39,721 nucleotides of DNA. It comes from Deltaproteobacteria bacterium. Its GTDB lineage: Bacteria; UBA10199; GCA-002796325; 1-14-0-20-49-13. Location of the stretch: the NCBI GenBank assembly GCA_016180865.1, contig JACPAJ010000013.1:1-39721 (forward strand). The letters are read 5' to 3'. Positions 7,612 to 36,000 of the stretch are shown piece after piece. The notes below the pieces were generated by a model. That model was not told where the DNA came from. It saw only the letters and a list, made by a program, of their open reading frames with translations, and made no database searches. Every line of letters starts with the position of its first letter. Position 1 is the first letter of the stretch. Both the position numbers and the translations under genes were made by a program.

Positions 7612-7739
7612 GACGTGTGGTGAGGATACCCCATTTTTATGGGTTTTCTGCGACGCTCACGATAGTCGGATAAACACACAGACAACTAACCGAAATTCCA
7701 CAATAATTATAAAAAAAGAACTTATCATTTTTAAGTTGA

Positions 7740-7756
7740 TTGGCACGTTTTATGCT
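7740..7756 (+). promoter_or_regulatory. Sigma-54 (-24/-12) promoter
   Basis: TTGGCACGTTTTATGCT has GG at 7742-43 and GC at 7754-55 with exact 10-nt spacing (consensus TGGCACG-N4-TTGC). It follows an AT-rich tract, and a sigma-54 activator is in the same locus. Confidence 0.85.
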
Positions 7757-7770
7757 TTGTTATTGGTTTC

Positions 7771-16073: not shown

Positions 16074-16078
16074 AGTTT

Positions 16079-17298: not shown

Positions 17299-17337
17299 AA
17301 TAATCTTTTGATGTCAAGGCACTTTTTTTTGACATAA

Positions 17338-17724: not shown

Positions 17725-17763
17725 TTTAAGTGCGAAGGCTGATAGTATTAAAGTAAACAAATA

Positions 17764-17829
17764 GCCCGCCACTAAACCATTGGCGGGCGTAAGAACGCCT
17801 AAACTCATCGGAATTCGCTAAGGCGTTCT
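17764..17829 (+). promoter_or_regulatory. Tandem hairpins in the leader of the major pilin gene
   Basis: GCCCGCCA 17764-71 pairs with TGGCGGGC 17781-88, and AGAACGCCT 17792-800 pairs with AGGCGTTCT 17821-29. Both lie just 5' of the GGAGGA RBS. Confidence 0.5.
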
Positions 17830-17843
17830 AACGGAGGATAATT

Positions 17844-18266
17844 ATGCGAAGAGAAAAAGGTTTTACATTAATTGAACTTGTGCTTGTCATTGCCGTACTG
17901 GGGGTTTTGGCCGTGTCGGCGCTGCCCAACCTTTTCGATATTTCATTGACGAACGCCAGAAATAATGCGCGAGACGGCGTAGTCGGCGCAGTTCAGGCCG
18001 GTCTTTCACTTTACGGAGCCAACCAAATTTCTCAAGGGAACACCGAATCGTATCCGACATTGCTTGAAACAAGCGATTTGGCCGATGGAACGGCTTCCAG
18101 CCGCACGAATCCGCTTTTCAATAATATCCTGCAGGGCGGCGTAACGCGCGATTGGACAAAAAAGAACGATACCTGTTACACCTATACCGGAGGAGGAGCG
18201 ACGGATGATTATCAGTATACCGCCGGAACGACGGGCACGTTTGTATTTGCCAGCGGCGGATGCTAA
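17844..18266 (+). CDS. Type IV major pilin, MshA-like
   Basis: Class III signal KG|FTLIELVLVIAVLG, ALP...NAR...GVVGAV as in MSHA pilins, two C-terminal Cys, strong RBS. Confidence 0.92.
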   Translation: MRREKGFTLIELVLVIAVLGVLAVSALPNLFDISLTNARNNARDGVVGAVQAGLSLYGANQISQGNTESYPTLLETSDLADGTASSRTNPLFNNILQGGVTRDWTKKNDTCYTYTGGGATDDYQYTAGTTGTFVFASGGC

Positions 18267-18277
18267 ACGAGGTGTTT

Positions 18278-18637
18278 ATGAAGAGATCCAAAATTGAAAT
18301 TTTTGCCGTTGTTGCGGTTGTAATCTTGGCAGTCGGAATTTTCGGCGTTAAATCATTTTTAATAAATAAGGCCGAAAAAGAGAATGCGCTCATGGCTGAA
18401 CTCAAGTCTTTGCGGACATCGGTTCAAATTTATCTTGTGCTGAATAAGAGCTATCCATCGGACCTGAAAAGCCTTGCCGGCCAAAAATTCGTTCTCGGCA
18501 ATAAAGAAGAATCCTACGTTAAGGGCATTAAACTTGATAGAGATGGATATCCGATAGATGTTTTCGGCCAAAAGTTTGATTATAACCCAAGAACGGGCTG
18601 GGTAAATTCTTCAGTAAAAAGATATTCAGAATGGTAA
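18278..18637 (+). CDS. Pilin-like membrane protein; paralog of 17338..17724
   Basis: GAGGTG RBS before ATG 18278, TM, then ELKSLR...YPSDL...DVFGQKFDYNPRTGWV...YSEW. Confidence 0.8.
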   Translation: MKRSKIEIFAVVAVVILAVGIFGVKSFLINKAEKENALMAELKSLRTSVQIYLVLNKSYPSDLKSLAGQKFVLGNKEESYVKGIKLDRDGYPIDVFGQKFDYNPRTGWVNSSVKRYSEW

Positions 18638-19095
18638 AAGCTTTAAAGGGTTTTACCCTTATTGAAACGCTTTTAGTGATCGCTATTCTGGGAATTTTGT
18701 CTATAGCGCTCGTTACGCGCATATTTAATTATAAAAGATCCTATATTGAAGTAACGTCAAAGAAAGCCGCGAGCGATATTGAATATGCCAGAAGCCTTGC
18801 GATGATGAAACAGGGGACGACTTACGGGGTTTTTTTCGATGACGCCAATGATCGATATACGGTTTATGCAACAAGCACTGCAACTCCCGTTGCGGACCCC
18901 CAAACGAAGCAAAATCTTATTGAAACATTTTCAAGATGGCCCGGAGTTACGATTACCGGAGGCAATTTTACTGTTGAATTCAATCAATGGGGGTCTCCTA
19001 CGACAGGCGGCGGCGGAAGCGTGACGCTTACCGACGGCACAAACTCAAAGACGGTCACCATTACGGCAGGCACGGGGAAGGTGAGTGTGCAATAA
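18631..19095 (+). CDS. Minor pilin (FimU/GspH/MshC-like)
   Basis: KG|FTLIETLLV, DIEYARSLAM, VEFNQWGSP, TGKV. Confidence 0.9.
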   Translation: MVKALKGFTLIETLLVIAILGILSIALVTRIFNYKRSYIEVTSKKAASDIEYARSLAMMKQGTTYGVFFDDANDRYTVYATSTATPVADPQTKQNLIETFSRWPGVTITGGNFTVEFNQWGSPTTGGGGSVTLTDGTNSKTVTITAGTGKVSVQ

Positions 19096-19529
19096 TGTTC
19101 AAGCAACAAGCAACTAGCAAGGGTGTGACGTTGATCGAGGCAGTTCTAATGATCGGCATTGTCGGGGCCGGTCTCATTGGAATAGCTTATACAATGTTCG
19201 GCGGCCCCAAATCCGCTCTGATAGCCGACCAGACAGTTGTTGCAGCCCATTTGGCCCGTGAAAAGATGGAACAGATCCTTGCGGACAGGGCAAATAACGG
19301 TTACGCAACGACAATTGCCACAAGTTATTCCGATGGCGCATTAACCGGCAATTACAGCATTTATACGAGAAACGTTACGATTACGGAAGTTGATTCAGAT
19401 GCTGACGGCGGCAGCGACGATTTTCTGGATGCTTTAGCCGGTTCAGGATACGCCAGAGTAACTACGACTGTAACATGGAACAGCGGAAACAACACCGTAA
19501 AAGAGGAGATGCTGATTGCAAATTATTAG
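19095..19529 (+). CDS. Minor pilin (PilV/GspI/MshD-like)
   Basis: The true start is ATG 19095 (TAATG overlap). KG|VTLIEAV, AAHLAREKMEQI, RVTTTVTW. Confidence 0.88.
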   Translation: MFKQQATSKGVTLIEAVLMIGIVGAGLIGIAYTMFGGPKSALIADQTVVAAHLAREKMEQILADRANNGYATTIATSYSDGALTGNYSIYTRNVTITEVDSDADGGSDDFLDALAGSGYARVTTTVTWNSGNNTVKEEMLIANY

Positions 19530-20034
19530 AGCCCATTTGCGGCGCGGCGGATTTACGCTTGTAGAACTTGTTTTGTCTATTGCTATCATTGCGATTCTTG
19601 CTGCAAGCGTCGGGCCGATTTTAACGACAAGTTTCAGAGGCTATGATCTTGTTGCAAAAAGACGGATAGCGCTGGCCCAAATCAGAATAGCGCTGGACAG
19701 AATGTGCGGTGAAATTGCTCTTATTCCGGACACAGCCAATATTGTCACATTTACCTCTACAAATTTCACATTTAATATTCCGAGCGAAAGCAATGTTGCA
19801 TATACAACAAGCGGAAGCACTCTTACACGTAGCGGCGTGAATCTGGCCGATAATGTAACTTCGCTCGCATTTACTTATCTTGATTCGGCCGGCAATTCAA
19901 CGGCGACAAAGGCAAATATAAAAAGGATAAAAGTTGAAGCGTCGGTTACAGCAGGTGCCGGCATGGGAACGTTAAATATAAGGGATCAAGTTTTTCCGCG
20001 GAGGTTTGCAAGCGCTTATGCAGGGTATCAGTAA
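19516..20034 (+). CDS. Minor pilin (PilW/GspJ/MshO-like)
   Basis: GG|FTLVELVLSIAII, ALDRMCGEI, LADNVTSLAFTYLD. Confidence 0.9.
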   Translation: MQIIRAHLRRGGFTLVELVLSIAIIAILAASVGPILTTSFRGYDLVAKRRIALAQIRIALDRMCGEIALIPDTANIVTFTSTNFTFNIPSESNVAYTTSGSTLTRSGVNLADNVTSLAFTYLDSAGNSTATKANIKRIKVEASVTAGAGMGTLNIRDQVFPRRFASAYAGYQ

Positions 20035-22270
20035 ATATAAGGGCCAAAACGGAGTAACCGTCATCGCAGCGCTTGTTGCGGTATTTTTCATCGGCGCTGT
20101 CGGCGCGGGAATGGCATATTTTGTCGCGTCCAATCAGCAGACCCGGATACAGCAGGTGACGCGCGATCAGGCTCTTTATTCAAACATGGCCGGGATGGAA
20201 TTTGCGCTGCGCCAGATTATGGTCAGCGGCTCGCAGGCAACTTCTATCACGCGGAAATTTGTCGGCGAAACCATAACAATAACTCGCTCAAGCGGAGCGA
20301 TAAACGTTTCAACGGCAAAAAAGGACGCGTTTTCTTCTCATTCGATCACAGACCCGAATCCCCCGAATCTTGCAAATTGCCTTGTTATAAATACCGCTGC
20401 CGCCGCCGTAACCGACCAGAATCCTGGAGATAAGCACAGGCTTACCGGCATAACTCTAAGCCGCGATGCGAGCTGCACGGATGCGCTTACAATCAACTCC
20501 ATGAGCACAACTACATGGGCGCCCGATAACGGAGAGCTTTTAAATGCGATTGAAATTGCCGGTTCGCCGACCGAATTCAGCGGCCCGGCGGCGGGAAGCG
20601 GCGGAACGTTTGATTTCGGTTCGAATGATTATGCTATTAATGATGCCGCAACGCATAATCTCACATATGTCCAGTGGAATTCCGACATGAGCGGCCACAA
20701 TTTCCATCTTGTTTTTAACTTTACGATAAATGCCCAGACTTTCAGCAAATCGGCCGATGTCAATTTTTTGGCCGCGAATCAGGCCGGATGTTTCAGCTGG
20801 ACTACGACAAGCGCAAGGCTTTCATTTACTTCCAACGCGTGGCGCGATCTTATAAACACAAGCATTGCAAACTCCTGCGCGCAGCCGATAAGGCTTGATA
20901 AGATGACAGTTTCATGGACTCCGACAACGCCTTCGCGAAATCTTACGAATGTCCAGCTCAACGGCGGCTCGGAAGAGTTCACCGGTACGGCCGCAAGCGG
21001 AGTTCAAATTGAAGTCGATGATCTTATATCGGCATCTTCGTCTCAAACTGTCAATTATTTCAGATTTGACGGCGATATGCTGGGGCGGAATTATAGCGTT
21101 GTTTGGACATTTGCCGACGGAACGTCAACGACGCTATCTTTAAATCTTTTTAATGCAAATGAAAATAATTGTTTAACAATTAATACCGCCAATGTCGCGG
21201 TTTCCGGAAATGATGTTACCGGGCTTACCGTCCAAAATATCTGCAGCGCCGATATAGGAATGACTTCGGCAACGATGACGTGGAGCGGAGGGCCGGCAAA
21301 TTTCACGGCTATTTCAATCGACGATGTTGACGGCACAAATACCTATTCCGGAACTTTTGCAAGCGGCGCGGCGCTTGATTTTGCAACTGTAGATGCCGTT
21401 GACGGCAATCTGTATTATCCGGACGGAAGCGGAGTGAAAAATATAAATTCGCTTAGTTTCAGCTCCACTCCCGCCGGAACAACGTTTACTATTACGTTTA
21501 CAATGGCCGACGGTACGACTAAAGCCGCTACATTTACGCCTCAAACGCAGGCAAATTGTTTGAGCGTGAATATGCTCGGCAGTTCGCTTACAAACGGCAG
21601 CAAAGACCTTAGCGGGATAACAACTACCAATAATTGCAGCTTTCCAATCACATGGGCGCAGACAACGGTCACTACATCTTCGACGCGCAATTTGACGCAG
21701 ATAGTTGCCGATGGCGTAACTATTTTCAGCGGTAGCGCTGGCAGCGGCGTAACGGTCGACAACACGGATGTTGTTTATTCAGCATCGCAAACTGTTTCAA
21801 TCGACAGATTCAGGTTCAGCGGGAGCGTGGCCAATCGCGTCATAACGATAGATTTCATAATGGGAGATGGCTCGACTCAAACGGCTGAATTTTCAGAAAA
21901 ATTCTGCCTTGTGCCGAATACATCTGCAGCCACAATCGGCGGCACGGGAGGCGTCGATCTTTTGGGAATTACGATTAATAACCAATGCACCGCGCGTTCG
22001 ATCATTTGGATCACCACGGTTGCCAGTTGGACGCCGACGTCGCCTACAAGAAATTTAACGTCGATAGTCGTTGACGGTTCGTCTGTTTTCAGCGGTTCGA
22101 TGGCATCCGGCGGCACAACGAATAATTCCAACGTTACGCTGACAGCCGGTCAAACAAGGGCAATTACAAGATTTCGCTTCAGCGGAGATATGACCGGCAG
22201 AACGTTTACAATCACATTTAATATGCAGGACACATCGAGCGACACAACGCCGTCTTTCACGCCGCCGTAA
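20006..22270 (+). CDS. Large minor pilin (PilX/GspK/MshP-like N-terminus) fused to five Cys-paired beta-rich repeats; putative tip adhesin
   Basis: NG|VTVIAALV without E5, QALYSNMAGMEFALRQ, then Thr/Ser-rich repeats beginning ANCLVINT, AGCFSWTT, NNCLTINT, ANCLSVNM and KFCLVPNT. Confidence 0.85.
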   Translation: MQALMQGISKYKGQNGVTVIAALVAVFFIGAVGAGMAYFVASNQQTRIQQVTRDQALYSNMAGMEFALRQIMVSGSQATSITRKFVGETITITRSSGAINVSTAKKDAFSSHSITDPNPPNLANCLVINTAAAAVTDQNPGDKHRLTGITLSRDASCTDALTINSMSTTTWAPDNGELLNAIEIAGSPTEFSGPAAGSGGTFDFGSNDYAINDAATHNLTYVQWNSDMSGHNFHLVFNFTINAQTFSKSADVNFLAANQAGCFSWTTTSARLSFTSNAWRDLINTSIANSCAQPIRLDKMTVSWTPTTPSRNLTNVQLNGGSEEFTGTAASGVQIEVDDLISASSSQTVNYFRFDGDMLGRNYSVVWTFADGTSTTLSLNLFNANENNCLTINTANVAVSGNDVTGLTVQNICSADIGMTSATMTWSGGPANFTAISIDDVDGTNTYSGTFASGAALDFATVDAVDGNLYYPDGSGVKNINSLSFSSTPAGTTFTITFTMADGTTKAATFTPQTQANCLSVNMLGSSLTNGSKDLSGITTTNNCSFPITWAQTTVTTSSTRNLTQIVADGVTIFSGSAGSGVTVDNTDVVYSASQTVSIDRFRFSGSVANRVITIDFIMGDGSTQTAEFSEKFCLVPNTSAATIGGTGGVDLLGITINNQCTARSIIWITTVASWTPTSPTRNLTSIVVDGSSVFSGSMASGGTTNNSNVTLTAGQTRAITRFRFSGDMTGRTFTITFNMQDTSSDTTPSFTPP

Positions 22271-22285
22271 GAGGCCGAAAGATAG

Positions 22286-22314
22286 TTGAATTTATTGAGC
22301 ATGAATGCTATCAT
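22286..22314 (+). promoter_or_regulatory. Putative sigma-70 promoter with extended -10
   Basis: TTGAAT-N17-TATCAT with TG at -15/-14, 9 nt before ATG 22324. Confidence 0.55.
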
Positions 22315-22323
22315 TAACGACAT

Positions 22324-23868
22324 ATGAAACAACGAGTGAAACGCAAGCCGGCATCAGAAAAACTTAAAAAACCGATCGCCAAGGATAAAGATATAACCGT
22401 CCTTAATCAGACTTTATTGAATACCATCCCCTTTCCAATGGATATTGTGGACGATACAGGAACGATTCTTTACATGAGCGAATTAATGCAAAAAATGGCT
22501 GGTAAAAATGGCGCCGGCAAAAAATGCTGGCTGCTTTACAGGGATGATAAAGTCAGGTGTCCCGCATGCCCTCTTGAAACGGGAATAACCGTCGGAGAAA
22601 CGAAAACCATAGATGTGGGAAGCTGCTTTGGAGGAAAGCAGATGGAGGTTACTCACACCGGGATGATCTATAAAAGCAAAAAAGTGATTCTTGAAATTTT
22701 TTACGATATAACCGAAAGAAAAAAAGCCGATGAAGTTTTGAAAAATATCAGGGAAAAACTTGAAGAGAAAAATTTTGAATTAAAGCGGCTAAATGAAGTC
22801 AAATCCGAATTTGTGGCGACAGTTTCGCATGAGCTCAGAACTCCTTTGGCTTCGATCAAAGAAGCCATTTCGCTTATTTTGGACGGAGTGTCAGGGGAAA
22901 CTAACGAAAAACAGCGCAACTTTTTAAGCATCGCCAACAGAAATATCGACCGGCTTACCGGTTTAATCAACAATCTTCTCGATATTTCTAAAATCGAAAC
23001 CGGCAAGCTCAAGCTTTATAAAACGAATTTTTTGATGATGGATGTTATAAAAGAGGTTATCGATTCATTCAAACATCTTGCAGAGAATAAGAGAATTAAC
23101 CTGCGGCTGATCGAGAAAACCGACCTTCCGTCTGTATATGCGGACAAAGACAAGATAACGCAGATAATTATCAATCTCCTTTCAAATGCTTTAAAATTCA
23201 CGCCTGAAGGCGGTTTTGTGGAAGTTTCGACAGATTATACAAAATCGGATAAGGAATTCGTTGAAGTTGAAGTTAAAGATTCCGGAATGGGCATCGCCGA
23301 AGATGACATGCCAAAGCTTTTCCATAAATTCCAGCAGATCGACGGATCGATAACCCGCAAAATCGGCGGAACGGGCCTGGGGCTGGCCATCTCAAGGGAA
23401 ATTATCGAAATGCACGAAGGCAGAATCTGGGCGGCGTCTGAACTGGGCAAGGGGAGCCGCTTTGGGTTCATTCTGCCGGTTATTCCAATGGGGAAGATTA
23501 AAGTCGATAAAAAGAGGATTTTGATAATTGACGATGACCCCGATCTTTGCGAAACTCTAAAAACAAGGCTTGAAGCCAATGAATTTATCGTATTTACGGC
23601 TTTAAACGGGATGGACGGAATTGAACTGGCAAAGAAAAACAGGCCGAATCTTATTATTTTGGATTTAATGATGCCGGAAATGGATGGTTTTCAAGTTTGC
23701 CAGTCATTAATGAAAGACAGCCAGACATCTTCCATCCCCGTGGTGGTGTTGACTGTCCTTGATCAGGAGGAGGCAATACGAAAAGCCTTGTGTAAAGGCG
23801 CGGTAGGATATATGATTAAGCCATACGATTCCGAATCGCTGCTGGAAACAGTCAGGGAGTTTTTATGA
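22324..23868 (+). CDS. Hybrid histidine kinase (Cys-containing PAS, HisKA, HATPase, receiver)
   Basis: GKKCW...CPACP PAS motif, VSHELRTPL, NLLSNALKFT, GGTGLGL, ILIIDDD...DLMMPEMDG. Confidence 0.95.
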   Translation: MKQRVKRKPASEKLKKPIAKDKDITVLNQTLLNTIPFPMDIVDDTGTILYMSELMQKMAGKNGAGKKCWLLYRDDKVRCPACPLETGITVGETKTIDVGSCFGGKQMEVTHTGMIYKSKKVILEIFYDITERKKADEVLKNIREKLEEKNFELKRLNEVKSEFVATVSHELRTPLASIKEAISLILDGVSGETNEKQRNFLSIANRNIDRLTGLINNLLDISKIETGKLKLYKTNFLMMDVIKEVIDSFKHLAENKRINLRLIEKTDLPSVYADKDKITQIIINLLSNALKFTPEGGFVEVSTDYTKSDKEFVEVEVKDSGMGIAEDDMPKLFHKFQQIDGSITRKIGGTGLGLAISREIIEMHEGRIWAASELGKGSRFGFILPVIPMGKIKVDKKRILIIDDDPDLCETLKTRLEANEFIVFTALNGMDGIELAKKNRPNLIILDLMMPEMDGFQVCQSLMKDSQTSSIPVVVLTVLDQEEAIRKALCKGAVGYMIKPYDSESLLETVREFL

Positions 23869-24230
23869 CAAAAAAAATATTGATTGTGGATGACGAGAAG
23901 GATCTGGTTGAAACCCTTTCCTTCAGGCTGGAAGCCGCCGGTTATGCTATTATCACCGCTTTTGACGGGAAAGAAGGTCTGGAAAAAGCGCGTTCCGAAA
24001 AGCCGGATATCGTGCTTTTGGACATCATGATGCCCAAGATGGATGGCTATCAGGTTTGCAGGATGTTGAAATTCGATGACGAATATAAGCATATGCCGAT
24101 AATCATGCTTACCGCGCGGGGGCAGGAGCAGGATAAAAAGACGGGAGAAAACGTCGGAGCGGACGATTACGTCACAAAACCTTTTGACAGCGGGGACCTT
24201 CTCACGCGCATTAAAAAGCTTTTAAAATGA
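23865..24230 (+). CDS. Single-domain response regulator
   Basis: ILIVDDE, DIMMPKMDG, MLTA, DYVTKPF. Confidence 0.95.
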   Translation: MTKKILIVDDEKDLVETLSFRLEAAGYAIITAFDGKEGLEKARSEKPDIVLLDIMMPKMDGYQVCRMLKFDDEYKHMPIIMLTARGQEQDKKTGENVGADDYVTKPFDSGDLLTRIKKLLK

Positions 24231-24613
24231 AGTACGAAATTTTAATAGCGGACGATGATCGCGACTTTGTCACGGTTCTGAAGGAGCGTCTTGAATCAAG
24301 CGGCTTTATAACAGATTGCGCCTACGAAGGCGTCAGGACTATCGAGCTGGCCCATAAGAAAAAACCCGATTTGATTTTGCTGGACTGGAAAATGCCCGCA
24401 GGCGGCGCATCTACGGTTTTACAGTATTTGAAGGAGAAGCCGGAAACGAAAAACATCCCCGTTATTGTTATTACCGGAGTCGCCGATAATTTTTTGGAGT
24501 CTAAAGCGGCGTCATTGGGGGCCAAATATTTTATACGAAAACCGTACGATCCTCATCTGCTCATCGACACAATAAACGAAATCCTGGCTTTAAGAACCGA
24601 AAAATCAAAATAG
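24227..24613 (+). CDS. Single-domain response regulator
   Basis: ILIADDD, LDWKMPAG, VITG, FIRKPY. Confidence 0.93.
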   Translation: MKYEILIADDDRDFVTVLKERLESSGFITDCAYEGVRTIELAHKKKPDLILLDWKMPAGGASTVLQYLKEKPETKNIPVIVITGVADNFLESKAASLGAKYFIRKPYDPHLLIDTINEILALRTEKSK

Positions 24614-24659
24614 ATATTTTTCTTTAACATTTCATAAAGTTATGCTACTTTCATGACTT

Positions 24660-25535
24660 ATGTATCTTGAGTATTTTAATTTTACTGATGAGCCGTTTAA
24701 AATAACGCCGGATTCAAAATATCTTTATCTGTCCCGCCAGCACGAGGAGGTTTTGCAAGCGCTCCTTTACGGCATTACACAGCGCAAAGGCTTTATGGCT
24801 GTAATCGGAGACATCGGAACCGGAAAGACAACCATAAGCCGCGCGCTTTTAAACAGGCTTGATAAATCGATCGATACATCCATTATTTTAAATCCGATGC
24901 TTTCCGTTCAGGAGCTGCTGGAGGCCATTAACGACGATTTTGGAAATGCGGCAGCTACGAGAGATACGGTTAAGGGGCAGATAGATGCGCTGAATGAATT
25001 CATGCTGCGCCGCCTACGCTTCAATAAAAATGCGATTGTGATGATAGATGAAGCGCAGCATTTGAGCGTTGAATCCATGGAGATGCTGAGGCTGCTGTCA
25101 AATCTGGAGACCGAAGATAAAAAGCTGATGCAGATAATTTTTCTGGGGCAGAAAGAGCTTGAAACAAAATTGAAATCGCCGGAACTCCGCCAGCTCGACC
25201 AGAGAATAGGCATTCGCTATTTTCTGGGGCCGCTGAATTACACCGAGACGTGCAATTATATTGTTCACAGGATAACAATGGCCGGAGGCGGGGGCGGCAG
25301 CATTCAGCTTGAAGAGCGGGGGTTGAGGAAAATTTTTGAATATTCAAAGGGAGTGCCGCGCAGGGTCAATATGATTTGCGACAGAAGCCTGCTGGAAGCT
25401 TTTGCACAGAGAAGCAAGCTTGTTACCAGCGGGATTGTAAAAGCCGCTATTCGCGACATTGAAGGCCTCTCAAACCCGAGCGGAGTCGCATTTTCCGGCA
25501 GAAAAAAAGTTTGGGAATTCTGGAAGTGGTTTTAA
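24660..25535 (+). CDS. ExeA/GspA/MshM-family AAA ATPase
   Basis: MYLEYFNFTDEPFKITPD, GDIGTGKT, IDEAQ, LRLLSNLET, GVPRRVNMICD. Confidence 0.93.
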   Translation: MYLEYFNFTDEPFKITPDSKYLYLSRQHEEVLQALLYGITQRKGFMAVIGDIGTGKTTISRALLNRLDKSIDTSIILNPMLSVQELLEAINDDFGNAAATRDTVKGQIDALNEFMLRRLRFNKNAIVMIDEAQHLSVESMEMLRLLSNLETEDKKLMQIIFLGQKELETKLKSPELRQLDQRIGIRYFLGPLNYTETCNYIVHRITMAGGGGGSIQLEERGLRKIFEYSKGVPRRVNMICDRSLLEAFAQRSKLVTSGIVKAAIRDIEGLSNPSGVAFSGRKKVWEFWKWF

Positions 25536-25550
25536 AAATCAGGGGGATAA

Positions 25551-26336
25551 ATGTCCGTAATTTTAAAAGCTCTCAAAAGCCAGGAGAGAGAATCAAATAA
25601 TATCAGCAAGTCGCCGTTAATTATTCCAGAAGGCGAAGGTTTTTTTAAAGGCAGGCAGTCGATGGTTAAAAAAGATCCTTACGTCTCCAAAAAAAGGATT
25701 TATGTTTTAAGCGTTCTTTTTGCCGCTGCGGTTATTTTTGCAGTTGCTCTTCAGTGGGTGAAAAACAGGCCGGCCGAGCCTGAGTCTGCAAAACAACCGG
25801 CTGTTGCTCATGCGGTTGAAAATTCAAATCAAACCGCACTGGCTGTTCAAGCGGAAACAAGCGAGGCTGTTCCGGCAGACATAGTTGAACGGGCAAATGC
25901 AGCTTTTGCCGGCGGAGATTATGAAACCGCAGTGAAATTGTTTAAGGAAGCAATCGCGAAAGATCAAAACAATGCAATGCTTCATAATAATTTAGGGCTT
26001 ATATTTGTAAAAAAAGAGCTCTATTCCAGCGCGGAAGATGAGTATAAAAAAGCGCTTGAATCTGACGATAAGTGCGCGGAATGTTTTAATAATTTTGGAT
26101 ATCTGAAATCGATATTGGGAGAATCGTTTGAGGCGAGGAAATATTTTGAAAAGGCATCGGTGTTATTAGCATCGTACGCAGATCCGTATTTTAACCTGGC
26201 GGTCTTATCCGAAAAAGAAGGGGACATAGGCAATGCCGTTAAATATTACAGGCAGTTCATCGAGCTCTATCCGAATAAAAGCGATACGCTCTATTCTAAA
26301 GTCAACAAACGGGTAATTGAACTTGCCGGGAAATAG
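25551..26336 (+). CDS. Membrane-anchored TPR protein (ExeB/MshN-like)
   Basis: MSVILKALK N-terminus typical of ExeB/MshN, a TM segment and TPR motifs (HNNLG, FNNFG, YFNLA). Confidence 0.85.
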   Translation: MSVILKALKSQERESNNISKSPLIIPEGEGFFKGRQSMVKKDPYVSKKRIYVLSVLFAAAVIFAVALQWVKNRPAEPESAKQPAVAHAVENSNQTALAVQAETSEAVPADIVERANAAFAGGDYETAVKLFKEAIAKDQNNAMLHNNLGLIFVKKELYSSAEDEYKKALESDDKCAECFNNFGYLKSILGESFEARKYFEKASVLLASYADPYFNLAVLSEKEGDIGNAVKYYRQFIELYPNKSDTLYSKVNKRVIELAGK

Positions 26337-26338
26337 TT

Positions 26339-27346
26339 ATGGCTAAGATTTCATTAGGGGTCGACATAGGCTCTGAAGATATAAAAGTAGTATGCCTGGA
26401 AAAAAATGAAGAAAGTTATAAGCTGAATTCTTACGGCCATTTCAGGTTCGGCGGCGACGAAGAGGCTTTAAAAAGATTTGTGCAGGAAGCAAAGCTTCCG
26501 AAGGGCGATGTAAGAATAAATATTGAAGACAGCTCTTTAAAAATAAGAAGGCTTGATCTGCCGACCATGACCGAAGAGGAATTTAATGAGGCCGTTCGCT
26601 GGGGGATGAAGGATATTGTTGAAGGGGATATTAACGATTTTATCTTTCGCTGTTCAAAAATAGATCCGACGGATCTGAGCCTTGAAAATAAAATTCCGAT
26701 GCTGGTTTTTGCAATCAAGGCCGATACGGTGTCTGGCAGGCGCAGTTTTGCTAAGCGCATAGGCTTTAAAATCCCAAGCATTATAGAACCCAATGCAGGT
26801 GCTCTGGCATGTCTTTTTGATGCGCTGAAGGGAAAAGAAAGAGACTCTTCAAAAGCGGTTGTTGATTTAGGGAGGGTCTTTTCGCCTTTTATCGTTATCG
26901 GGAAAAAAGGGCTGGTTTTTTCCAGGCCGATGAACGGCTGCAGCGAAATTAATTTTATCGGCCAGCTTGCGCGGGACTTAGGCATAGGCTCAAAAGAGGC
27001 GGAAGATTTAAAGCAAAAATTTTTTGGAGGAGGAAAAATAAGCGGAGAAATTGAGACAAGGCTTAAAAATTCCGTGACGCAGTTTTATTCAAAAATGGCC
27101 GTTGAAATTCAGCGGTCTATTGACGGGTATAATCTTGTTTTCGGCAGGCAGAAAGTCGATGAAATTTTTCTTTGCGGAAACGGCGCGTACAGCAAAGGGC
27201 TGATTGGTTATCTTAATCAGACTCTTGGCGTTAAAACGGGCATATTGGATCCGTTCGAATTTGCCGATACGCGAGAATTCAGCCCTGGGCCGTTTGACGG
27301 CAAACGGGCTCTTTTTGCGGTTGCTTGCGGGCTTGCGGTTGATTGA
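26339..27346 (+). CDS. pilM: Type IV pilus assembly protein PilM
   Basis: LGVDIGSEDIKVV, VVDLG, EIQRSIDGY, IFLCGNGA, AVACGLA. Confidence 0.92.
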   Translation: MAKISLGVDIGSEDIKVVCLEKNEESYKLNSYGHFRFGGDEEALKRFVQEAKLPKGDVRINIEDSSLKIRRLDLPTMTEEEFNEAVRWGMKDIVEGDINDFIFRCSKIDPTDLSLENKIPMLVFAIKADTVSGRRSFAKRIGFKIPSIIEPNAGALACLFDALKGKERDSSKAVVDLGRVFSPFIVIGKKGLVFSRPMNGCSEINFIGQLARDLGIGSKEAEDLKQKFFGGGKISGEIETRLKNSVTQFYSKMAVEIQRSIDGYNLVFGRQKVDEIFLCGNGAYSKGLIGYLNQTLGVKTGILDPFEFADTREFSPGPFDGKRALFAVACGLAVD

Positions 27347-27361
27347 TTCGGCGCAAATTTT

Positions 27362-27898
27362 ATGCATATTAACTTTGAAACAAAGAGAAATGTGTTTGAA
27401 ATGATTCTGTTGAAGGGGCTTGAAGTTAATAGGCTGCTGATGGTTTTTTTCGTTATCGGTGTAATTATGCTGATGGTTTTATTCGGCCTGGTTCAAAAAT
27501 TCCGCCTCGATTATCTTGGGGCAAAAAGAATAAAAATGGAACATCAGGTGATAGAATTGCGCAAAGGAACGCCCCTTGAAAATCTTTCGATAGCAAGCAG
27601 CGCAGGCAAGGATCAGATATTTATAAATTATGAAGAAAAAATCATCTGGTCGGATATTCTTAAAGAACTTTCGGTTTACTGCCCTGAAAATGTGCAAGTT
27701 ACGCAGTTTAAAAGTACTAGTTCCGGCCGGACAGTTAACATAGGCGGCGACGCGCCGGATCAGGCGAGCGTTGCCGATTTTGTAAAAGCCCTTCAGGGAA
27801 GCGGAACTTTTAAGGACGTTAAACTTTTGTCCTCAACATCCGTTCAGGCTGAGGGCGGGAGCACGAGGATCGTTTACAGCATTGCAAGCACAATATGA
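27362..27898 (+). CDS. pilN: PilN-family protein
   Basis: HINF motif, TM, WSDILKELS...PENVQV, FVKALQGSGTFKDVKL; lies after pilM. Confidence 0.82.
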   Translation: MHINFETKRNVFEMILLKGLEVNRLLMVFFVIGVIMLMVLFGLVQKFRLDYLGAKRIKMEHQVIELRKGTPLENLSIASSAGKDQIFINYEEKIIWSDILKELSVYCPENVQVTQFKSTSSGRTVNIGGDAPDQASVADFVKALQGSGTFKDVKLLSSTSVQAEGGSTRIVYSIASTI

Positions 27899-28473
27899 AC
27901 ATTCATCTATCAAGCGTTGACTGGCAGCAGCGCCCCAACAGGCGCGAAAAAATCATATTTGCCTGTTCCGTTCTCATATTTTTTGCGGTTTTTTTAAAAT
28001 CATGCTGGTATCCGAGCAACAAAGCCATTGGGGTTGCAAAATCGGAATTGAAAGGCATTATCGAAGAAAAAATAGCCTTGGAAAGAAACGCCGGGTTGTT
28101 GCAGGACACAGATGCGAAAGGCAAGCTCTGGACGGGAACCCCCGATGAAAGGGTCGCCTATATTAAAATGGCCCAGAGAGTAAGCGAATCGCCGAATGTT
28201 GTTCTGATGAAAGAATTTTCCAACCCTGCGCTTTTGCGGGATGTGAAACTGTCAAACATAGATTTTCCGGACCAAAAAAATGAAAGCGGAATGATAAAGC
28301 AGCAGTGGAAAATCAATGTCAACGGAGCGTTTGTATCGGTAGGTAAATATATTGAGAGATTAGAAGGCTTGCCAATGCTTTTATTTATTGATAATATAAC
28401 GTTCAATTCGGCAAACGATCCGTTTGGGCGCGTTAATGCCGAGGTTGAAGGAACCGTTTATGGCTGGAAATAA
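27895..28473 (+). CDS. pilO: PilO/GspM/MshJ-like protein
   Basis: RREK plus TM, coiled coil, INVNGAF...YIERLEGLP; gene order pilM-N-O. Confidence 0.75.
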   Translation: MNIHLSSVDWQQRPNRREKIIFACSVLIFFAVFLKSCWYPSNKAIGVAKSELKGIIEEKIALERNAGLLQDTDAKGKLWTGTPDERVAYIKMAQRVSESPNVVLMKEFSNPALLRDVKLSNIDFPDQKNESGMIKQQWKINVNGAFVSVGKYIERLEGLPMLLFIDNITFNSANDPFGRVNAEVEGTVYGWK

Positions 28474-28831
28474 TTTATTCAGATTATCGTTTGCGGTGCT
28501 TGTCCTTGCTTTTGCGCTTTCAGCTTCTGCAGAGCAGGGGAAAAAGGCGCTTTCAGGCCTGAATATAGAGGAATTTGAGCAGAAAAAGGAGAGGCCGACC
28601 GACTGGAGCAAGAATCCTTTTGTCATTCCAGCGGCGGATGTGGCGGTAAGCGAATTAAAACTTTCGGGAATCGTTTACAGTGAAAAGGAATCCGCAGCGA
28701 TTGTAAGCGATAATATCGTTAAAATCGGCGATAAAATAGGATCGAACGAAGTTGTTGCAATAGAAAAGATGAGAGTTGTTATAAGAAACGAAAACGGCCT
28801 TTTTGGAATTGCCCTTAGCGGAGGGAAATGA
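28460..28831 (+). CDS. PilP/MshK-like protein
   Basis: Signal peptide, KNPF, LKLSGIVYS...AIV...VKIGDKI; lies directly before the secretin. Confidence 0.75.
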   Translation: MAGNNLFRLSFAVLVLAFALSASAEQGKKALSGLNIEEFEQKKERPTDWSKNPFVIPAADVAVSELKLSGIVYSEKESAAIVSDNIVKIGDKIGSNEVVAIEKMRVVIRNENGLFGIALSGGK

Positions 28832-30198
28832 AGAAATTTATAATATTTTGCCTGCTGATGCTGTCGTGCGACCTCTGGTCTTATGAAAGGCTTTTCAGCG
28901 TCGAGTTTCGCGATGCCGATATCAAGAGCGTTCTAAGGCTCTTGGCAAAGATGGACGACCGGAATATCGTTGTTCCCGACAAAATTGAAGGAAAAGTAAC
29001 CGCCAGTTTTGAAAACATAGGATTATATGATGCGCTTGACGCTGTTTTAAAAACGCACGGCTATGGCGTGATTGAAGAAAATAATATCCTGCAGGTCCTT
29101 TCAAAGGACGAAATGCAGTCTTTAGGCGAAGATCTTCAGCAGGCGACATTCATTCTGCAGTATGCAAAAGCTTCGGACATCCTTCCGCAAATACAGGCGT
29201 TAATCACATCGCGCGGTTCCGCAGTTGCGGATGAAAGGACAAATACGATTTTCGTGAGAGATTCAAATGCCGCCGTTAACAACATAAGAGGGCTTGTCGC
29301 AAATATCGATAAAAAAGACAGCCAGGTGCTGATCGAAGCTAAAATAATCGAAGCGAGCCTGGATTTTATAAGAAGCCTTGGCGTGCAGTGGGGCGTCACG
29401 AAATCAGGCGGAAAAATCCAGACAGCGGGAGTTGAGGCCGTGGGAACCGCCGATAGCGGAAGAACTCTGATGCTGAATTCTCCGGCCGTTGGATTGAATT
29501 CCGGCGCGCCTTTGGGCGGTGTTGGAATGATTTTGGGGAGTTTCCGCGGGACGCTTACGGATGTGCAGCTGACAACCGCCGAACAGAAAGGGGATGTCAG
29601 CATTCTTTCAAGGCCGTCCGTTACGACAATCAATAATCATTCCGCATCTATCAGAAGCGGAGCCAAATTCTACGTCAAAACAAGCGGCAACGTAACGATC
29701 GGCGGAACAACAGGCGCTGCGGTTTCGACAGGCACAAATCTGCAGCAAATCGTTACGGGGATAGAATTGAAGGTGACGCCGCAGATTTCAATGGACGAAT
29801 TTATCAAGCTTGATATCGCAGCAACCGAATCCGAGGCGGATTTTACAAAAGCAATTGAGGGAATACCGGCAGTCCTTGATAATACAGCCACGACAACCGT
29901 TATGCTTAAAAACGGCGAAACAACAATTATCGGCGGACTTTTCCGCGTGCGCGATGCGAAAACCATTAAAGGGATTCCGGGACTCATGAAAATTCCGATT
30001 TTAGGAAATCTATTCAAGAGCAAGTCAAAAACTAAAGCCAGGAGCGAGCTGCTGATATTTATCACTCCTAAGATTATAGAATCTACTCTTTCAAGCCTTC
30101 CTCATTATGAGGAGCCGGACAGCATGTATTATACAGAGCCCATTTTAAATCCCGAACGAAAAGAGAAGAAGAAACGCAAATTCCGATTCAAGTATTAA
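28828..30198 (+). CDS. pilQ: Secretin (PilQ/MshL/GspD family)
   Basis: FRDADIKSVL, DERTNT, QVLIEAKIIE, TGIELKVTPQI, IPILGNLFK, ELLIFITPKI. Confidence 0.94.
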   Translation: MKKFIIFCLLMLSCDLWSYERLFSVEFRDADIKSVLRLLAKMDDRNIVVPDKIEGKVTASFENIGLYDALDAVLKTHGYGVIEENNILQVLSKDEMQSLGEDLQQATFILQYAKASDILPQIQALITSRGSAVADERTNTIFVRDSNAAVNNIRGLVANIDKKDSQVLIEAKIIEASLDFIRSLGVQWGVTKSGGKIQTAGVEAVGTADSGRTLMLNSPAVGLNSGAPLGGVGMILGSFRGTLTDVQLTTAEQKGDVSILSRPSVTTINNHSASIRSGAKFYVKTSGNVTIGGTTGAAVSTGTNLQQIVTGIELKVTPQISMDEFIKLDIAATESEADFTKAIEGIPAVLDNTATTTVMLKNGETTIIGGLFRVRDAKTIKGIPGLMKIPILGNLFKSKSKTKARSELLIFITPKIIESTLSSLPHYEEPDSMYYTEPILNPERKEKKKRKFRFKY

Positions 30199-33577: not shown

Positions 33578-33648
33578 AATCTGCATTGACATTGATTTAA
33601 AAAATCTGTATTTAATGGCCATTCTGAATTAACAAGGAGGAGGGGATA

Positions 33649-33801
33649 ATGGATAAGAAGAAAAAAGATGAACTGGCCAAAACGTGCTGCGGGCCTAAAG
33701 TAACGACGGAAAAGTCGTCTAAAAAGCAAAAGTGGGAAAAACCGTCGCTTGAAAATGTGTCGACCCGTGTTATGGCACAGCCGTATATCAGATTTACATG
33801 A
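33649..33801 (+). CDS. Putative RiPP precursor peptide (50 aa, PqqA-like WxKP motif); not in the ORF track
   Basis: Strong RBS AAGGAGGAGGGG. Translation MDKKKKDELAKTCCGPKVTTEKSSKKQKWEKPSLENVSTRVMAQPYIRFT*. Lies directly upstream of PqqD-family and radical SAM genes. Confidence 0.88.
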   Translation: MDKKKKDELAKTCCGPKVTTEKSSKKQKWEKPSLENVSTRVMAQPYIRFT

Positions 33802-33827
33802 GTCGCAATTAGTTGATTTTATTAAAT

Positions 33828-33860
33828 AAAAGGAGCAGCCAATTTAAGCTGCTCCTTTTT
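33828..33860 (+). terminator. Stem-loop or intrinsic terminator between the precursor and the maturase genes
   Basis: AAAAGGAGCAGC-CAATTTAA-GCTGCTCCTTTTT: perfect 12-bp inverted repeat with a T tract. Confidence 0.85.
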
Positions 33861-33882
33861 AATTATCTACCGGAGGTTATAT

Positions 33883-34131
33883 ATGAAATTTGCAAATTCA
33901 GTAAAGGTGCGCAGTGAAAAATTTGGATCGGTTGTTTTTGAAACCCTTCGGGAAAGAGTTTTTGTCTCAAATACGACCGGAGCGGATGTTTTAAAACTTA
34001 TAGAAGACGGCAAAACAAAAGAAGAGATAATTGCCGATTTGTCCGCTAAATACGATGGCAACGAAAGCACAATAAAGAACGACATTGCCGAATATTTTGC
34101 ATGTCTTGAACAAAACAATCTATTAGCTTAG
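33883..34131 (+). CDS. PqqD-family RiPP recognition element (MftB-like N-terminus)
   Basis: 82 aa; VKVRSEKFGSVVF...NTTGADVLKLIEDGKTKEEIIADLSAKYD...DIAEYFACL; GGAGGT RBS. Confidence 0.92.
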   Translation: MKFANSVKVRSEKFGSVVFETLRERVFVSNTTGADVLKLIEDGKTKEEIIADLSAKYDGNESTIKNDIAEYFACLEQNNLLA

Positions 34132-34148
34132 AAAAGGAGACTAATAAA

Positions 34149-35141
34149 ATGGTTATCGAAAACGATCTTCGCATAATGGCGAAGCAGTACGTTCCGGAAG
34201 GCGGGAGCTTTGCCGATTTTGAGGCGCCTTTATTTATGGCGTGGCAGCTGAATCAGGAATGCAACATCGCATGCCTGCACTGCTGCGAAGAGGCGGGGCA
34301 TTTTATGCCGGACACTCTTAATTCAAACGAGGTTGCAAATTTTTGCGAGCAGATTACCACTATGAAAATTCCTTATGTCGCAATCTCCGGCGGAGAGCCG
34401 ATGCTGCACAAGGATTTTTATAAAATATGCGAATATTTCAGAAAGCATAATATAAGCCTGAAAGTTGAGACCAATGGGCTTCTTATCACAAAAGAAAAAG
34501 CCAAATGGTTTGGAAGCCTTGGATTCAGATCTGTTCAGGTGAGCGTTGACGGCGCAACCGCCGAGGCGCACGAAAAATTGAGAATTAAGGGCAAATGGCA
34601 GCCGACGATCGATGCGTGCAAATATCTTGTGGAAGCCGGAGTAACGACGGAAATAGTTTTTGTCCCCACAAAATTCAATATTCATGAAACCGGCCAGTTG
34701 ATCGATATGGCCCATAAAATGGGCATTTACGGCGTTTATACAGGCAAAACCATGAGAATTGGCCGTGCTGCCGAAAACTGGGACGCGCTTTGCCCGACGG
34801 ACGCTCAGTACGAAGAATTTTTTAAAGTGCTGAAGGAGAAACAGGCGTCTTATGAAGGCAGAATGAAGGTCTATTATTATCCTTATGATGTTATTGAGGA
34901 ACTGAAATACAGGCTGGAATATCCTTCGGCGAGTCTCCTTGTCATTCCCAACGGAAAAGTAAAGCTTATCGGGCCTATGCCGTTCTTGTGCGGAGATCTT
35001 CGGAAGCACACTTTGGCCGAAATCTGGGAGAGATATAAAAAATCGTGGAAGGACCCTAAAGTTACGGCGTTTGCCAAGAAAGTTATCGCGGATCCAACAA
35101 TGGTAGCGAAGGCCAATGACTGGGTTGAGCTATATAACTAA
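34149..35141 (+). CDS. Radical SAM enzyme (PqqE/MftC-like) with a degenerate SPASM/twitch-like tail
   Basis: CNIACLHC (CxxxCxxC), SGGEP, ETNG, VQVSVDGA...HEKLR; tail IPNGKV...GDLRKHTLAEIW. Confidence 0.93.
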   Translation: MVIENDLRIMAKQYVPEGGSFADFEAPLFMAWQLNQECNIACLHCCEEAGHFMPDTLNSNEVANFCEQITTMKIPYVAISGGEPMLHKDFYKICEYFRKHNISLKVETNGLLITKEKAKWFGSLGFRSVQVSVDGATAEAHEKLRIKGKWQPTIDACKYLVEAGVTTEIVFVPTKFNIHETGQLIDMAHKMGIYGVYTGKTMRIGRAAENWDALCPTDAQYEEFFKVLKEKQASYEGRMKVYYYPYDVIEELKYRLEYPSASLLVIPNGKVKLIGPMPFLCGDLRKHTLAEIWERYKKSWKDPKVTAFAKKVIADPTMVAKANDWVELYN

Positions 35142-36000
35142 ATTACTCACGTTTATCCGGTACCGCTTTCTCCTTTTTGCAGGGGTTTTGCCGTATTTTC
35201 TCGGCGCGTCTATTGCCTATCAAAAGCTCGAGCTCTTTAATTTGAAGTTTTTTTTGCTTGGCTTAAGCGGCCTTGTTTTTGTGCTGATAGGAGTGGAAGC
35301 GTTCAATGAATATTTTGACTGGATCCTCGGCACCGACAGAATTTTTCAGATCGATCAAAAGCCTATCGGAAAGAAAAAATTTTATATCGGCATCGCGGCT
35401 TTTTTTGCAGCTCTCTTGTTTGCTGTTTATCTGACTTTAATAATCGGAAAGGGGATTGCGATATTTGCGCTTATTGGTTTTGCGGCGGCGGCATCTTATC
35501 TTGGACCGCCGGTCAAATTTGCGTATCGCGGTCTTGGGGAGGCGGTTATTGCTCTTGCTTATGGGCCGGCAATGGTTTTGGGAAGCTATTATTTGCAGAC
35601 TAAAACGGTGGATACGGAGCCGCTTTTAATTTCCATCCTTCCGGCGATATTATTATATTCAATAGCAATCATTAATGAAGTGCCCGATTTTTTGCAGGAC
35701 AGCCTTGTCGGCAAGCAAAATATCTGCGTAAGGCTGGGCAGGATCGGAGCGGTAAGGCTTTATGCCGGATTGCTGGGCCTATTTTTTGCAGCTGCTCTAG
35801 CTTTAATTGCTTTGCGTAAAATTCCGTTAACTGTGGGGGTGACTTTTTTTCTTATTCCTCTCGGTTTTTATAACTATCGCAAAGCGTGTAAATATTTTGA
35901 GGCCCCAGCCGATTTTTATCCGGTAATCCGCGGAACGCTTTTATTTTATATCATCGCAATGGTTATCTGCATTTTAAGCATTATTTTCCGGCCATTCTGA
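35116..36000 (+). CDS. UbiA-superfamily prenyltransferase, MenA-like
   Basis: FNEYFD...GTD, YLGPPVKFAYRGLGE, NEVPDFLQDSLVGKQNICVRLG, multiple TMs; overlaps the rSAM gene. Confidence 0.9.
   Translation: MTGLSYITKLLTFIRYRFLLFAGVLPYFLGASIAYQKLELFNLKFFLLGLSGLVFVLIGVEAFNEYFDWILGTDRIFQIDQKPIGKKKFYIGIAAFFAALLFAVYLTLIIGKGIAIFALIGFAAAASYLGPPVKFAYRGLGEAVIALAYGPAMVLGSYYLQTKTVDTEPLLISILPAILLYSIAIINEVPDFLQDSLVGKQNICVRLGRIGAVRLYAGLLGLFFAAALALIALRKIPLTVGVTFFLIPLGFYNYRKACKYFEAPADFYPVIRGTLLFYIIAMVICILSIIFRPF

Follow-up and report, generated by a model that had tools for sequence, protein, structure and literature searches.

A conserved gene cassette joining a ribosomal peptide and a probably RRE-guided radical SAM enzyme to a UbiA-type prenyltransferase, with a possible product in a membrane-resident cofactor

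To our knowledge, pyrroloquinoline quinone (PQQ) and mycofactocin are the only redox cofactors carved from ribosomal peptides by radical S-adenosylmethionine (SAM) enzymes that are guided by an RRE, the recognition element of RiPPs (peptides that are made on the ribosome and modified after translation). In the PQQ pathway (core genes pqqA, pqqD and pqqE) the precursor PqqA carries a conserved Glu and Tyr four residues apart; in the mycofactocin pathway (mftA, mftB and mftC) the precursor ends in Val-Tyr, and nicotinoprotein dehydrogenases accompany the system. Radical SAM maturases of the SkfB, SuiB and CteB type carry a fused RRE, and the enzymes that attach isoprenoids to ribosomal peptides, ComQ and the cyanobactin F-type, are soluble, have a polyprenyl-synthase-like or ABBA fold and act on variable peptides. 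Here we describe a cassette that shares parts of its logic with each of these systems and belongs to none of them. It lies in a 39,721-nucleotide stretch of DNA (contig JACPAJ010000013.1 of assembly GCA_016180865.1, a Deltaproteobacteria bacterium), which is called the window in the following, and consists of a small precursor gene, a PqqD-family RRE, a radical SAM enzyme (rSAM) and a MenA-related prenyltransferase of the UbiA superfamily, with these features:

33631..33642, plus strand: Shine-Dalgarno-like stretch AAGGAGGAGGGG, read directly, its end 5 nt before the ATG at 33649
33649-33801, plus strand: precursor gene, 50 aa, MDKKKKDELAKTCCGPKVTTEKSSKKQKWEKPSLENVSTRVMAQPYIRFT, from the list of open reading frames (ORFs) and from homologues
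33829..33865, plus strand: hairpin (33829-33858) and U-run between the precursor and pqqD genes, from folding
33883-34131, plus strand: PqqD-family RRE, 82 aa (PF05402, E 3.9e-12)
34149-35141, plus strand: radical SAM enzyme, 330 aa (PF04055, E 4.9e-22)
35116-36000, plus strand: UbiA-superfamily, MenA-related polyprenyltransferase, 294 aa (PF01040, E 2.8e-18)

The first-pass annotation of the window had proposed these genes as a candidate new RiPP system, and each of its elements (small ORF, hairpin, PqqD/RRE, rSAM and overlapping UbiA) is found where it had placed them, the rSAM and UbiA genes sharing a 26-nt overlap. Its remark that pqqB, pqqC, pqqF, mftD, mftE, a protease and an exporter are missing nearby also holds for the scanned window neighbours (ORFs up to 37100). 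None of the four proteins brings a model of NCBIfam (release 20, June 2026) up to its cut-off; the peptide matches nothing there and cannot be placed in an NCBIfam or Pfam family, and the enzymes are likewise without a specific model that fits.

The cassette is real and widespread. One genome from each of 185,579 species was scanned with the back-translated string VMAQPYIR from the peptide's C-terminus, giving 305 pattern matches, 280 of them confirmed by tblastn; the locus statistics rest on the best 80 of these 280, all from metagenome-assembled genomes (MAGs), with gene maps obtained by tblastn with reference proteins. The gene set recurs in 54 of the 56 evaluable loci, found through the peptide alone, and the arrangement is thus far beyond chance. 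It takes two forms. Type A, the form of the window, has the order peptide-PqqD-rSAM-UbiA (15 of the best 80 loci) and is complete in all 13 evaluable cases. Type B, which the first-pass annotation did not contain and which is the commoner among the best 80 loci (63), has three radical SAM genes in the order PqqD-rSAM1-UbiA-rSAM2-peptide-rSAM3; it is complete in 41 of 43 evaluable loci, rSAM3 being missing in L018 and L080. The window genome has no orthologue of the second or third type-B enzyme (B2 or B3). The two remaining loci fit neither type: in L059 the contig ends 200 nt after the peptide, and L047, from a Casimicrobiaceae MAG, contains at 6300-8300 a decayed type-B cluster, still beside frdCAB. 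In this copy PqqD and the peptide ORF have survived intact, but rSAM1 retains only its first ~100 residues, rSAM3 has a frameshift, and both UbiA and rSAM2 have been deleted.

By NCBI phylum label, the best 80 loci comprise 36 from Elusimicrobiota, 26 from Pseudomonadota (mostly Casimicrobiaceae / Burkholderiales), 7 from Planctomycetota, one each from Lentisphaerota, Omnitrophota, Bacillota, Chloroflexota and Caldifarciminota, and 6 without a label; the core is thus seen under at least 8 phylum labels, some of which may be wrong, since all 80 loci come from MAGs. The closest relative of the window's cassette, in a genome of another genus of the same family (G004), keeps all four genes in identical order, with a peptide that is 68% identical to that of the window and shares its last eleven residues exactly.

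The precursor has three parts: a variable, Lys-rich N-terminus, a conserved leader W29-x-K-P32-x-L-E-x-V-S38 (in consensus form WxKPxLE[DE]VS) and a near-invariant C-terminal core, V/I-MAQPYIRFT. A word-indexed protein search returned 69 homologues, all unnamed, in which the N-termini vary, W29, P32, L34, V37 and S38 are conserved, and V41-T50 is invariant. The peptide had been called PqqA-like; the resemblance is faint, as the Pfam PqqA model touches only 7 of these 69 peptides, with a best E of 0.096. An index-free HMMER profile search of 1.84 billion representative proteins gave 98 matches, of which 81 end in MAQPYIRFT. The other 17 include single substitutions of Met (to Ile in one, to Thr in two), of Gln (to Arg in one), of Thr (to Ser in one) and of Tyr (to Phe in four, to Cys in one); the rest are two more divergent tails, three read-through or frameshifted products and two unrelated proteins. 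The constancy of the core is thus extreme without being absolute, and it is not greatest at the Tyr: the most constant positions are the last five, P-x-I-R-F-T, with the C-terminal Thr changed only once, to Ser, in the 98 matches. A subfamily of short precursors (P0147, P0151, P0152, P0156 and also P0149; 37-43 aa) has the leader ...DVTGK... and ends in MAQPFIRFT, in one case in MAQPCIRFT.

Since the word-indexed search and the DNA scan both rely on the conserved tail, two tail-independent checks were added. One is the index-free profile search given above; in the other, metagenome contigs were searched by the rSAM alone, yielding 57 loci, 36 of which carry a peptide ending in (V/I)MAQPYIRFT just upstream; of those without it, one is a spurious 22% match and 20 have less than 260 nt upstream of pqqD or start inside the cluster. 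The peptide was found in every rSAM-found locus with enough upstream DNA, so that the proposed co-conservation of the small ORF and its C-terminus with the enzyme stands, real misses falling entirely at contig ends or cluster-internal starts. The small ORF is a genuine gene, and its core is under very strong purifying selection. In two rSAM-found loci a full UbiA gene does not follow directly: L142 gives no UbiA match, and L139 only a short partial one further on. In both, as far as the translations show by eye, other genes have been inserted right behind the rSAM gene: L142 (885-1478) has an ORF resembling a terminase small subunit, and L139 (548-1140) has two small toxin-antitoxin-like ORFs.

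The PqqD protein of the window scores 46.8 bits against PF05402 (gathering score 23.4) and stays below the cut-offs of all PqqD-type models of NCBIfam; R10, E12, F14, G15, V17, F19, T21 and E24 are invariant in 62 orthologues, and the protein presumably acts as a leader-binding chaperone. A 2025 survey names W/Y/L-x-x-P/L/I as the sequence that PqqD-like RRE groups recognize (PMC12710340), and the conserved W-x-x-P of the precursor leader matches this signature. Co-prediction of the PqqD alignment with the peptide alignment gave a score of 0.45, with one control at 0.47, and is not used as evidence.

The rSAM carries the CX3CX2C motif at C38, C42 and C45, each conserved at 98% or more in each of four groups (175 sequences). 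These three and C281, which is absent from rSAM3, are the sole conserved cysteines of the family; the C-terminal domain is thus SPASM/twitch-like in shape but lacks the ligands that an auxiliary cluster would need. In NCBIfam the enzyme comes closest to MftC (137.6 bits, cut-off 265, and over residues 24-232 only), AhbD, NirJ2 and PqqE, and its closest solved relatives by sequence are SkfB (6efn, E 5.9e-20) and PqqE. An AlphaFold2 model (mean predicted local distance difference test score 93.2) has SkfB as its top fold match (template-modelling score 0.71), along with SuiB and PqqE (6c8v). SkfB is thus the nearest in both sequence and fold, and it is, like SuiB and CteB, a peptide-modifying radical SAM enzyme that works through an RRE; in contrast to these, the cassette keeps its RRE as a separate protein, and its enzyme has one conserved Cys outside the motif (none in rSAM3) where those maturases hold auxiliary Fe-S clusters. 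In a tree of 71 rows (the complete set of 16 A sequences, one in three of the B sequences, and two outgroups) the groups A, B1, B2 and B3 are each monophyletic with at least 98 in the Shimodaira-Hasegawa-like approximate likelihood ratio test (SH-aLRT), and are jointly separate from the genome's other radical SAM enzymes. That the type A enzyme is simply the orthologue of rSAM1 of type B is not supported, the branching order being weakly resolved (SH-aLRT 84 for the placement of A). A different radical SAM enzyme, 31% identical and also Cys-poor at its C-terminus, is encoded on the minus strand at 1092-2373 of L005 (G001, contig C131), in a genome from the family of the window's organism; behind it come ORFs of 147 aa and of 163 aa (the latter Ala/Ser-rich) but no UbiA gene in the vicinity, and it may be part of another peptide-modifying system.

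The UbiA protein of the window scores 66.6 bits against PF01040 (cut-off 34.2). Its two Asp-rich motifs, N64..D68..D74 and N187..D191..D195, are kept residue by residue in all 66 cluster UbiAs, which by these motifs should be catalytically intact; they share with MenA the catalytic residues and the positions Y128, Y137/R138, E142 and K200, and have invariant residues specific to their own clade (an N-terminal RYRF motif, E61, E65, R75 and F77). The window protein reaches 64 bits on the menA model TIGR00751 (cut-off 102.15) and 24-94 bits on other MenA models (cut-offs 225-555); chlorophyll synthase models match weakly (NF005742, E 8.8e-10), and the nearest solved relative is UBIAD1 (8djk, E 5.5e-5). 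A quick IQ-TREE search without bootstrap was made with the 66 cluster UbiAs, 9 canonical MenAs of carrier genomes, heme O synthases, 4-hydroxybenzoate prenyltransferases and others, excluding 3 rows with in-frame stops and matches below 700 nt. The cluster UbiAs come out of this tree as a single clade (SH-aLRT 100), which belongs to the MenA-like radiation but stands apart from every canonical MenA. They thus resemble MenA and UBIAD1 in the fold, both Asp-rich motifs, their place in the tree and the link to a long-chain polyprenyl synthase described below, and differ from them in falling below the menA cut-off, in forming a separate clade and in always being joined to peptide, RRE and rSAM genes. 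The window genome has a second UbiA-family gene elsewhere (contig C149:12434-13276; L001 1408-2349), a candidate canonical MenA by its score (118 bits, above the menA cut-off of 102.15), which falls outside the clade. The first-pass annotation had made its proposal depend on the synteny of the prenyltransferase and its separation from housekeeping MenA, and both are borne out. In type B the UbiA gene sits between rSAM1 and rSAM2, and is thus inside the cluster rather than next to it.

Three neighbourhoods in three lineages involve the quinone-dependent respiratory chain or polyprenyl supply. In Elusimicrobiota, a polyprenyl-diphosphate synthase gene stands directly upstream in 23 of 34 type-B loci, often with a small regulator; its best matches are to long-chain enzymes (heptaprenyl and solanesyl diphosphate synthases), all below their cut-offs, and a synthase gene also follows ubiA in L074, L096 and L108. 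In Pseudomonadota, frdCAB lies within 7 kb of the cluster in 9 of 25 type-B loci, sometimes with dctPQM in between, and dsbB and hemN are found downstream. In one of these genomes (G063) a 45-kb region has the order nuo2, Fe-S protein, cyclic-nucleotide-binding regulator, malic enzyme, 2-oxoacid:ferredoxin oxidoreductase, frdCAB, dctPQM, cassette cluster, dsbB, a gene of the short-chain dehydrogenase/reductase family, a hemerythrin-like gene and hemN. Its contig C2 (~262000-296000; L177, L178) thereby sets a second, divergent nuo operon, malic enzyme, the oxidoreductase and fumarate reductase beside the cluster, and the region looks like a transferable island for anaerobic respiration; in nine further proteobacterial genomes the contig with the cluster also carries, at a distance of 14-35 kb, a second nuoH that is more divergent. 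Among type-A loci, L040 has a complete operon for the Na+-translocating NADH:quinone reductase (NQR), nqrABCDEF, that stops 16 nt short of the peptide gene (two of its genes, nqrC and nqrD, score over their cut-offs, and nqrB and nqrF come within 20 bits of theirs). Of the 45 type-A loci that span 4 kb or more, 8 have an NqrF-like gene and 5 have NqrD/E, and a histidine kinase adjoins 7, the window among them. Just upstream of the nqr operon, L040 encodes an AhbC/NirJ1-like radical SAM enzyme (6-983; 430 bits against a cut-off of 650), which suggests alternative heme or heme d1-type chemistry in this neighbourhood. No exporter, protease or immunity gene is among the conserved neighbours of the loci.

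The window itself is flanked upstream by two histidine kinases, one of the MEDS and one of the PAS type, and downstream by a LUD-domain protein and a 78-aa ORF without family match. Further away, at 14400-30198, it contains a set resembling type IV pilus or type II secretion genes (T2SSE ATPase, T2SSF, PilM and a secretin), interleaved with genes for hybrid histidine kinases and response regulators, and at 20006-22270 a 754-aa ORF without Pfam match. This neighbourhood, consisting of type IV pilus/secretion, two-component and LUD-domain genes, was rejected as functional context because it is uninformative. The hairpin in the precursor-pqqD spacer consists of a stem of 11 bp and a loop of 8 nt and leads into the U-run, with a centroid energy of -18.4 kcal/mol and a z-score of -3.36 against 200 shuffles; it does not appear in the list of a simple consensus terminator scan, though folding shows it. 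It is probably a leaky terminator or attenuator that sets the ratio of peptide to enzymes. A 50-nt segment of the peptide-pqqD spacer folds at -13 kcal/mol or below in most of 51 type-A loci, a count made without shuffle controls, and the hairpin sequences are unrelated among these loci, which fits a conserved attenuator role. The stretch is contained in four DNA sequencing runs of one groundwater study, and the run search lists no RNA sequencing run with it.

Quinone genes were surveyed in 38 carrier genomes, several of them incomplete, next to 14 control genomes that gave the expected matches. NuoH is present in 35 of the 38 and a canonical MenA over its cut-off in 9; neither MqnA/D nor MenB was found in any of them, and UbiE/MenG was over its cut-off in none of five carriers tested. 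In 29 carriers the cluster UbiA is the only MenA-like enzyme; in a lentisphaerotal genome (G045) it is the only UbiA-family gene, and in one of Elusimicrobiota (G041) the only other is heme O synthase. Two proteobacterial genomes were examined; both encode a 4-hydroxybenzoate prenyltransferase, of the ubiquinone type, and lack MenA. MqnA/D is found in 29 of 41 genomes of the window's class and MenB in two more; all five genomes of its family are without either, and only two of the five carry the cassette. The window genome (84% complete) has no MenB, MqnA/D or UbiE/MenG over cut-off, so that its canonical MenA, too, is without a visible head-group pathway. In an even sample of 151 Elusimicrobiota, the peptide is found in 6 genomes (all 3.3-4.3 Mb; a reversed control pattern in none), MqnA/D in 8 others and MenB in none; peptide and MqnA/D never occur together, and all 14 genomes with either fall among the 51 with a strong NuoH match. 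The stricter statement, that every complex-I genome of Elusimicrobiota has Mqn, Men or the cluster, was rejected: among the 25 genomes that score highest for NuoH (a line at ~290 bits, drawn after seeing the scores), 11 lack all three.

The reading we favour, at about even odds in our estimate, is that the cassette is a RiPP-type route from the peptide core to a polyprenylated, membrane-resident cofactor or electron carrier. We infer the chemical steps of such a route, their order, the residue modified, the release of the product and its respiratory role as follows. The precursor would be overproduced, through its strong ribosome-binding site and the hairpin that follows its gene; the PqqD-type RRE would bind the leader WxKPxLE[DE]VS and offer the core to the radical SAM enzyme, which, working without an auxiliary Fe-S cluster, would take a hydrogen atom from the core to yield a cross-link or another C-H functionalization (with one such enzyme in the form of the window, three paralogues in the larger form). 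The MenA-related UbiA would then attach a long polyprenyl chain from a polyprenyl diphosphate, and the product, possibly trimmed by an unlinked peptidase, would serve the respiratory chain as a quinone-like carrier or cofactor. A narrower proposal, which we make tentatively and hold to be possible rather than probable, is that the product is a ribosomally encoded, lipoquinone-like electron carrier, the third peptide-derived redox cofactor and the first that is polyprenylated and membrane-bound; it might stand in for menaquinone where the classical and futalosine routes are missing and, in proteobacteria with only ubiquinone, form a second, probably low-potential pool for NQR, the second complex I and fumarate reductase.

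Several observations weigh against a respiratory cofactor of this kind. The Tyr of the core had been proposed as the modified and prenylated residue, a view now weakened: it is replaced in 5 of the 98 profile matches (MAQPFIRFT in four, MAQPCIRFT in one), so that a quinone derived from Tyr cannot be the product of every member, and a Phe side chain accepts aromatic prenylation poorly. The cluster has no conserved peptidase, hydroxylase or methyltransferase, and UbiE/MenG was over its cut-off in none of the five carriers tested; the usual late steps of quinone synthesis are thus not visible. The same core is served by one radical SAM enzyme in type A and by three in type B, which fits no single chemical scheme yet. 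Nine of the 38 carriers, the window genome included, also hold a canonical MenA, and of ten complex-I Elusimicrobiota checked that have neither cluster nor Mqn, nine encode MenA or a MenA-like protein, in each case without an adjoining rSAM or PqqD gene, and none has MenB; an unrecognized head-group source, or salvage, is thus common there, and the argument from missing MenB and Mqn is weak in this phylum. The co-occurrence counts are moreover confounded by phylogeny and by incomplete genomes, and the genes around the cassette in the window (for histidine kinases, a type IV pilus and the LUD protein) are silent on respiration.

The conserved Thr and the replaceable Tyr would be accommodated more easily if the product stayed a peptide, that is, if it were a prenylated lipopeptide with its chain on the hydroxyl or carboxylate of the C-terminal Thr or on a cross-linked side chain, and served as a membrane-anchored structural element, a signal or an antibiotic. 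No peptidase would then be needed in the cluster, where none is conserved; P-x-I-R-F-T is the most constant part of the core, and a Tyr-to-Phe subfamily exists. The UbiA superfamily includes O-prenylating or esterifying members such as chlorophyll synthase, whose models match the window protein weakly, so that a prenyl ether or ester on the C-terminal Thr would be a live alternative under this explanation. The attachment of an isoprenoid to a ribosomal peptide, as proposed here, would recall ComQ/ComX and the cyanobactin F-type enzymes, from which the cassette differs in its integral-membrane, UbiA-type enzyme and its invariant core. A histidine kinase is adjacent in 7 of 45 type-A loci, but the cassette is not of the ComQXPA type, in which a variable pheromone peptide is paired with a membrane sensor kinase. 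RiPP signals and antibiotics usually vary in their core, whereas here the same core occurs under at least 8 phylum labels; there is no conserved exporter or immunity gene, the kinase next to the window's cassette carries a PAS domain and the other one a MEDS domain, the nearest relative (G004) has no kinase there, and the recurring neighbours are NQR, Frd/Nuo and the polyprenyl synthase. We therefore regard a lipopeptide, the main rival, as rather doubtful. Of the pair of outcomes that the first-pass annotation had offered, cofactor or signal, the cofactor gains from a core that hardly changes between phyla and from the respiratory genes next to the cassette.

The UbiA enzyme might also have nothing to do with the peptide, prenylating an ordinary aromatic acid (for example salvaged 1,4-dihydroxy-2-naphthoate), with the peptide, RRE and rSAM making a separate soluble cofactor or modifying a partner protein. 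Its clade within the MenA-like radiation, the MenA catalytic residues and several further shared positions would suit such a role, and MenA without MenB or Mqn is common in Elusimicrobiota, so that salvage or another route exists. This division of the operon is nevertheless unlikely given the gene order and the tree: UbiA is present in 54 of 56 evaluable loci, is interleaved between radical SAM genes in type B and overlaps the rSAM gene by 26 nt in the window, and the cluster UbiAs form one clade with invariant residues of its own, while 9 of 38 carriers retain a separate canonical MenA. That the cassette is a variant of the PQQ or mycofactocin pathway can practically be dismissed. The logic of precursor, PqqD and radical SAM enzyme is common to all three, MftC is the best NCBIfam match of the rSAM, and the weak PqqA resemblance of a few peptides has been noted; with PQQ the cassette shares a small precursor with a W-x-x-P-type leader and a highly conserved core (the product, in PQQ, being a redox cofactor), a discrete PqqD RRE and a PqqE-like rSAM fold, and with mycofactocin a near-invariant C-terminal core and a scattered distribution over phyla. 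However, the equivalogs are far below their cut-offs (MftC, TIGR03962, 137.6 against 265 bits; PqqE, TIGR02109, 86.1 against 381.35; PqqD, TIGR03859, 28.4 against 46; MftB, TIGR03967, 17.8 against 33); MAQPYIRFT has a Met four residues before the Tyr where PqqA has Glu-x-x-x-Tyr, and ends in Arg-Phe-Thr where the mycofactocin precursor has Val-Tyr; the auxiliary, SPASM-type cysteines are absent, and a membrane UbiA is integral to the cassette. The genes pqqB and pqqC are not among the scanned window neighbours or the conserved neighbours of the loci, whole genomes not having been searched for them; mftD, mftE and mftF were not seen in the flanks, and the neighbours are respiratory complexes rather than nicotinoprotein dehydrogenases. 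The model scores, the core motif and the missing auxiliary cysteines thus exclude membership in either family, in keeping with the new system that the first-pass annotation had proposed.

As far as searched, the cassette is undescribed: no description of it was found in the full-text literature (subscription journals and supplementary files lying outside this scope), nor did the literature search yield a paper on a UbiA-type RiPP prenyltransferase. The available parts of three related sources, a preprint on groundwater Elusimicrobia (10.1101/765248), the RRE-Finder paper (PMC7470986) and the 2025 RRE survey (PMC12710340), do not mention a prenyltransferase or UbiA.

With four small genes and an invariant nine-residue core, the cassette is amenable to testing. 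Even if its product is a lipopeptide, it would provide the first integral-membrane, UbiA-type enzyme that acts on a ribosomal peptide, and its radical SAM enzymes would constitute a family that depends on an RRE and does without auxiliary clusters. If the product is the polyprenyl-tailed carrier proposed above, it would be a third peptide-derived cofactor, wired to NQR, complex I and fumarate reductase, and would represent a new class of membrane electron carrier; it could then explain how many respiring bacteria not yet in culture, for example large-genome Elusimicrobiota and some Planctomycetota and Lentisphaerota, maintain quinone-dependent complexes without a recognizable quinone pathway.

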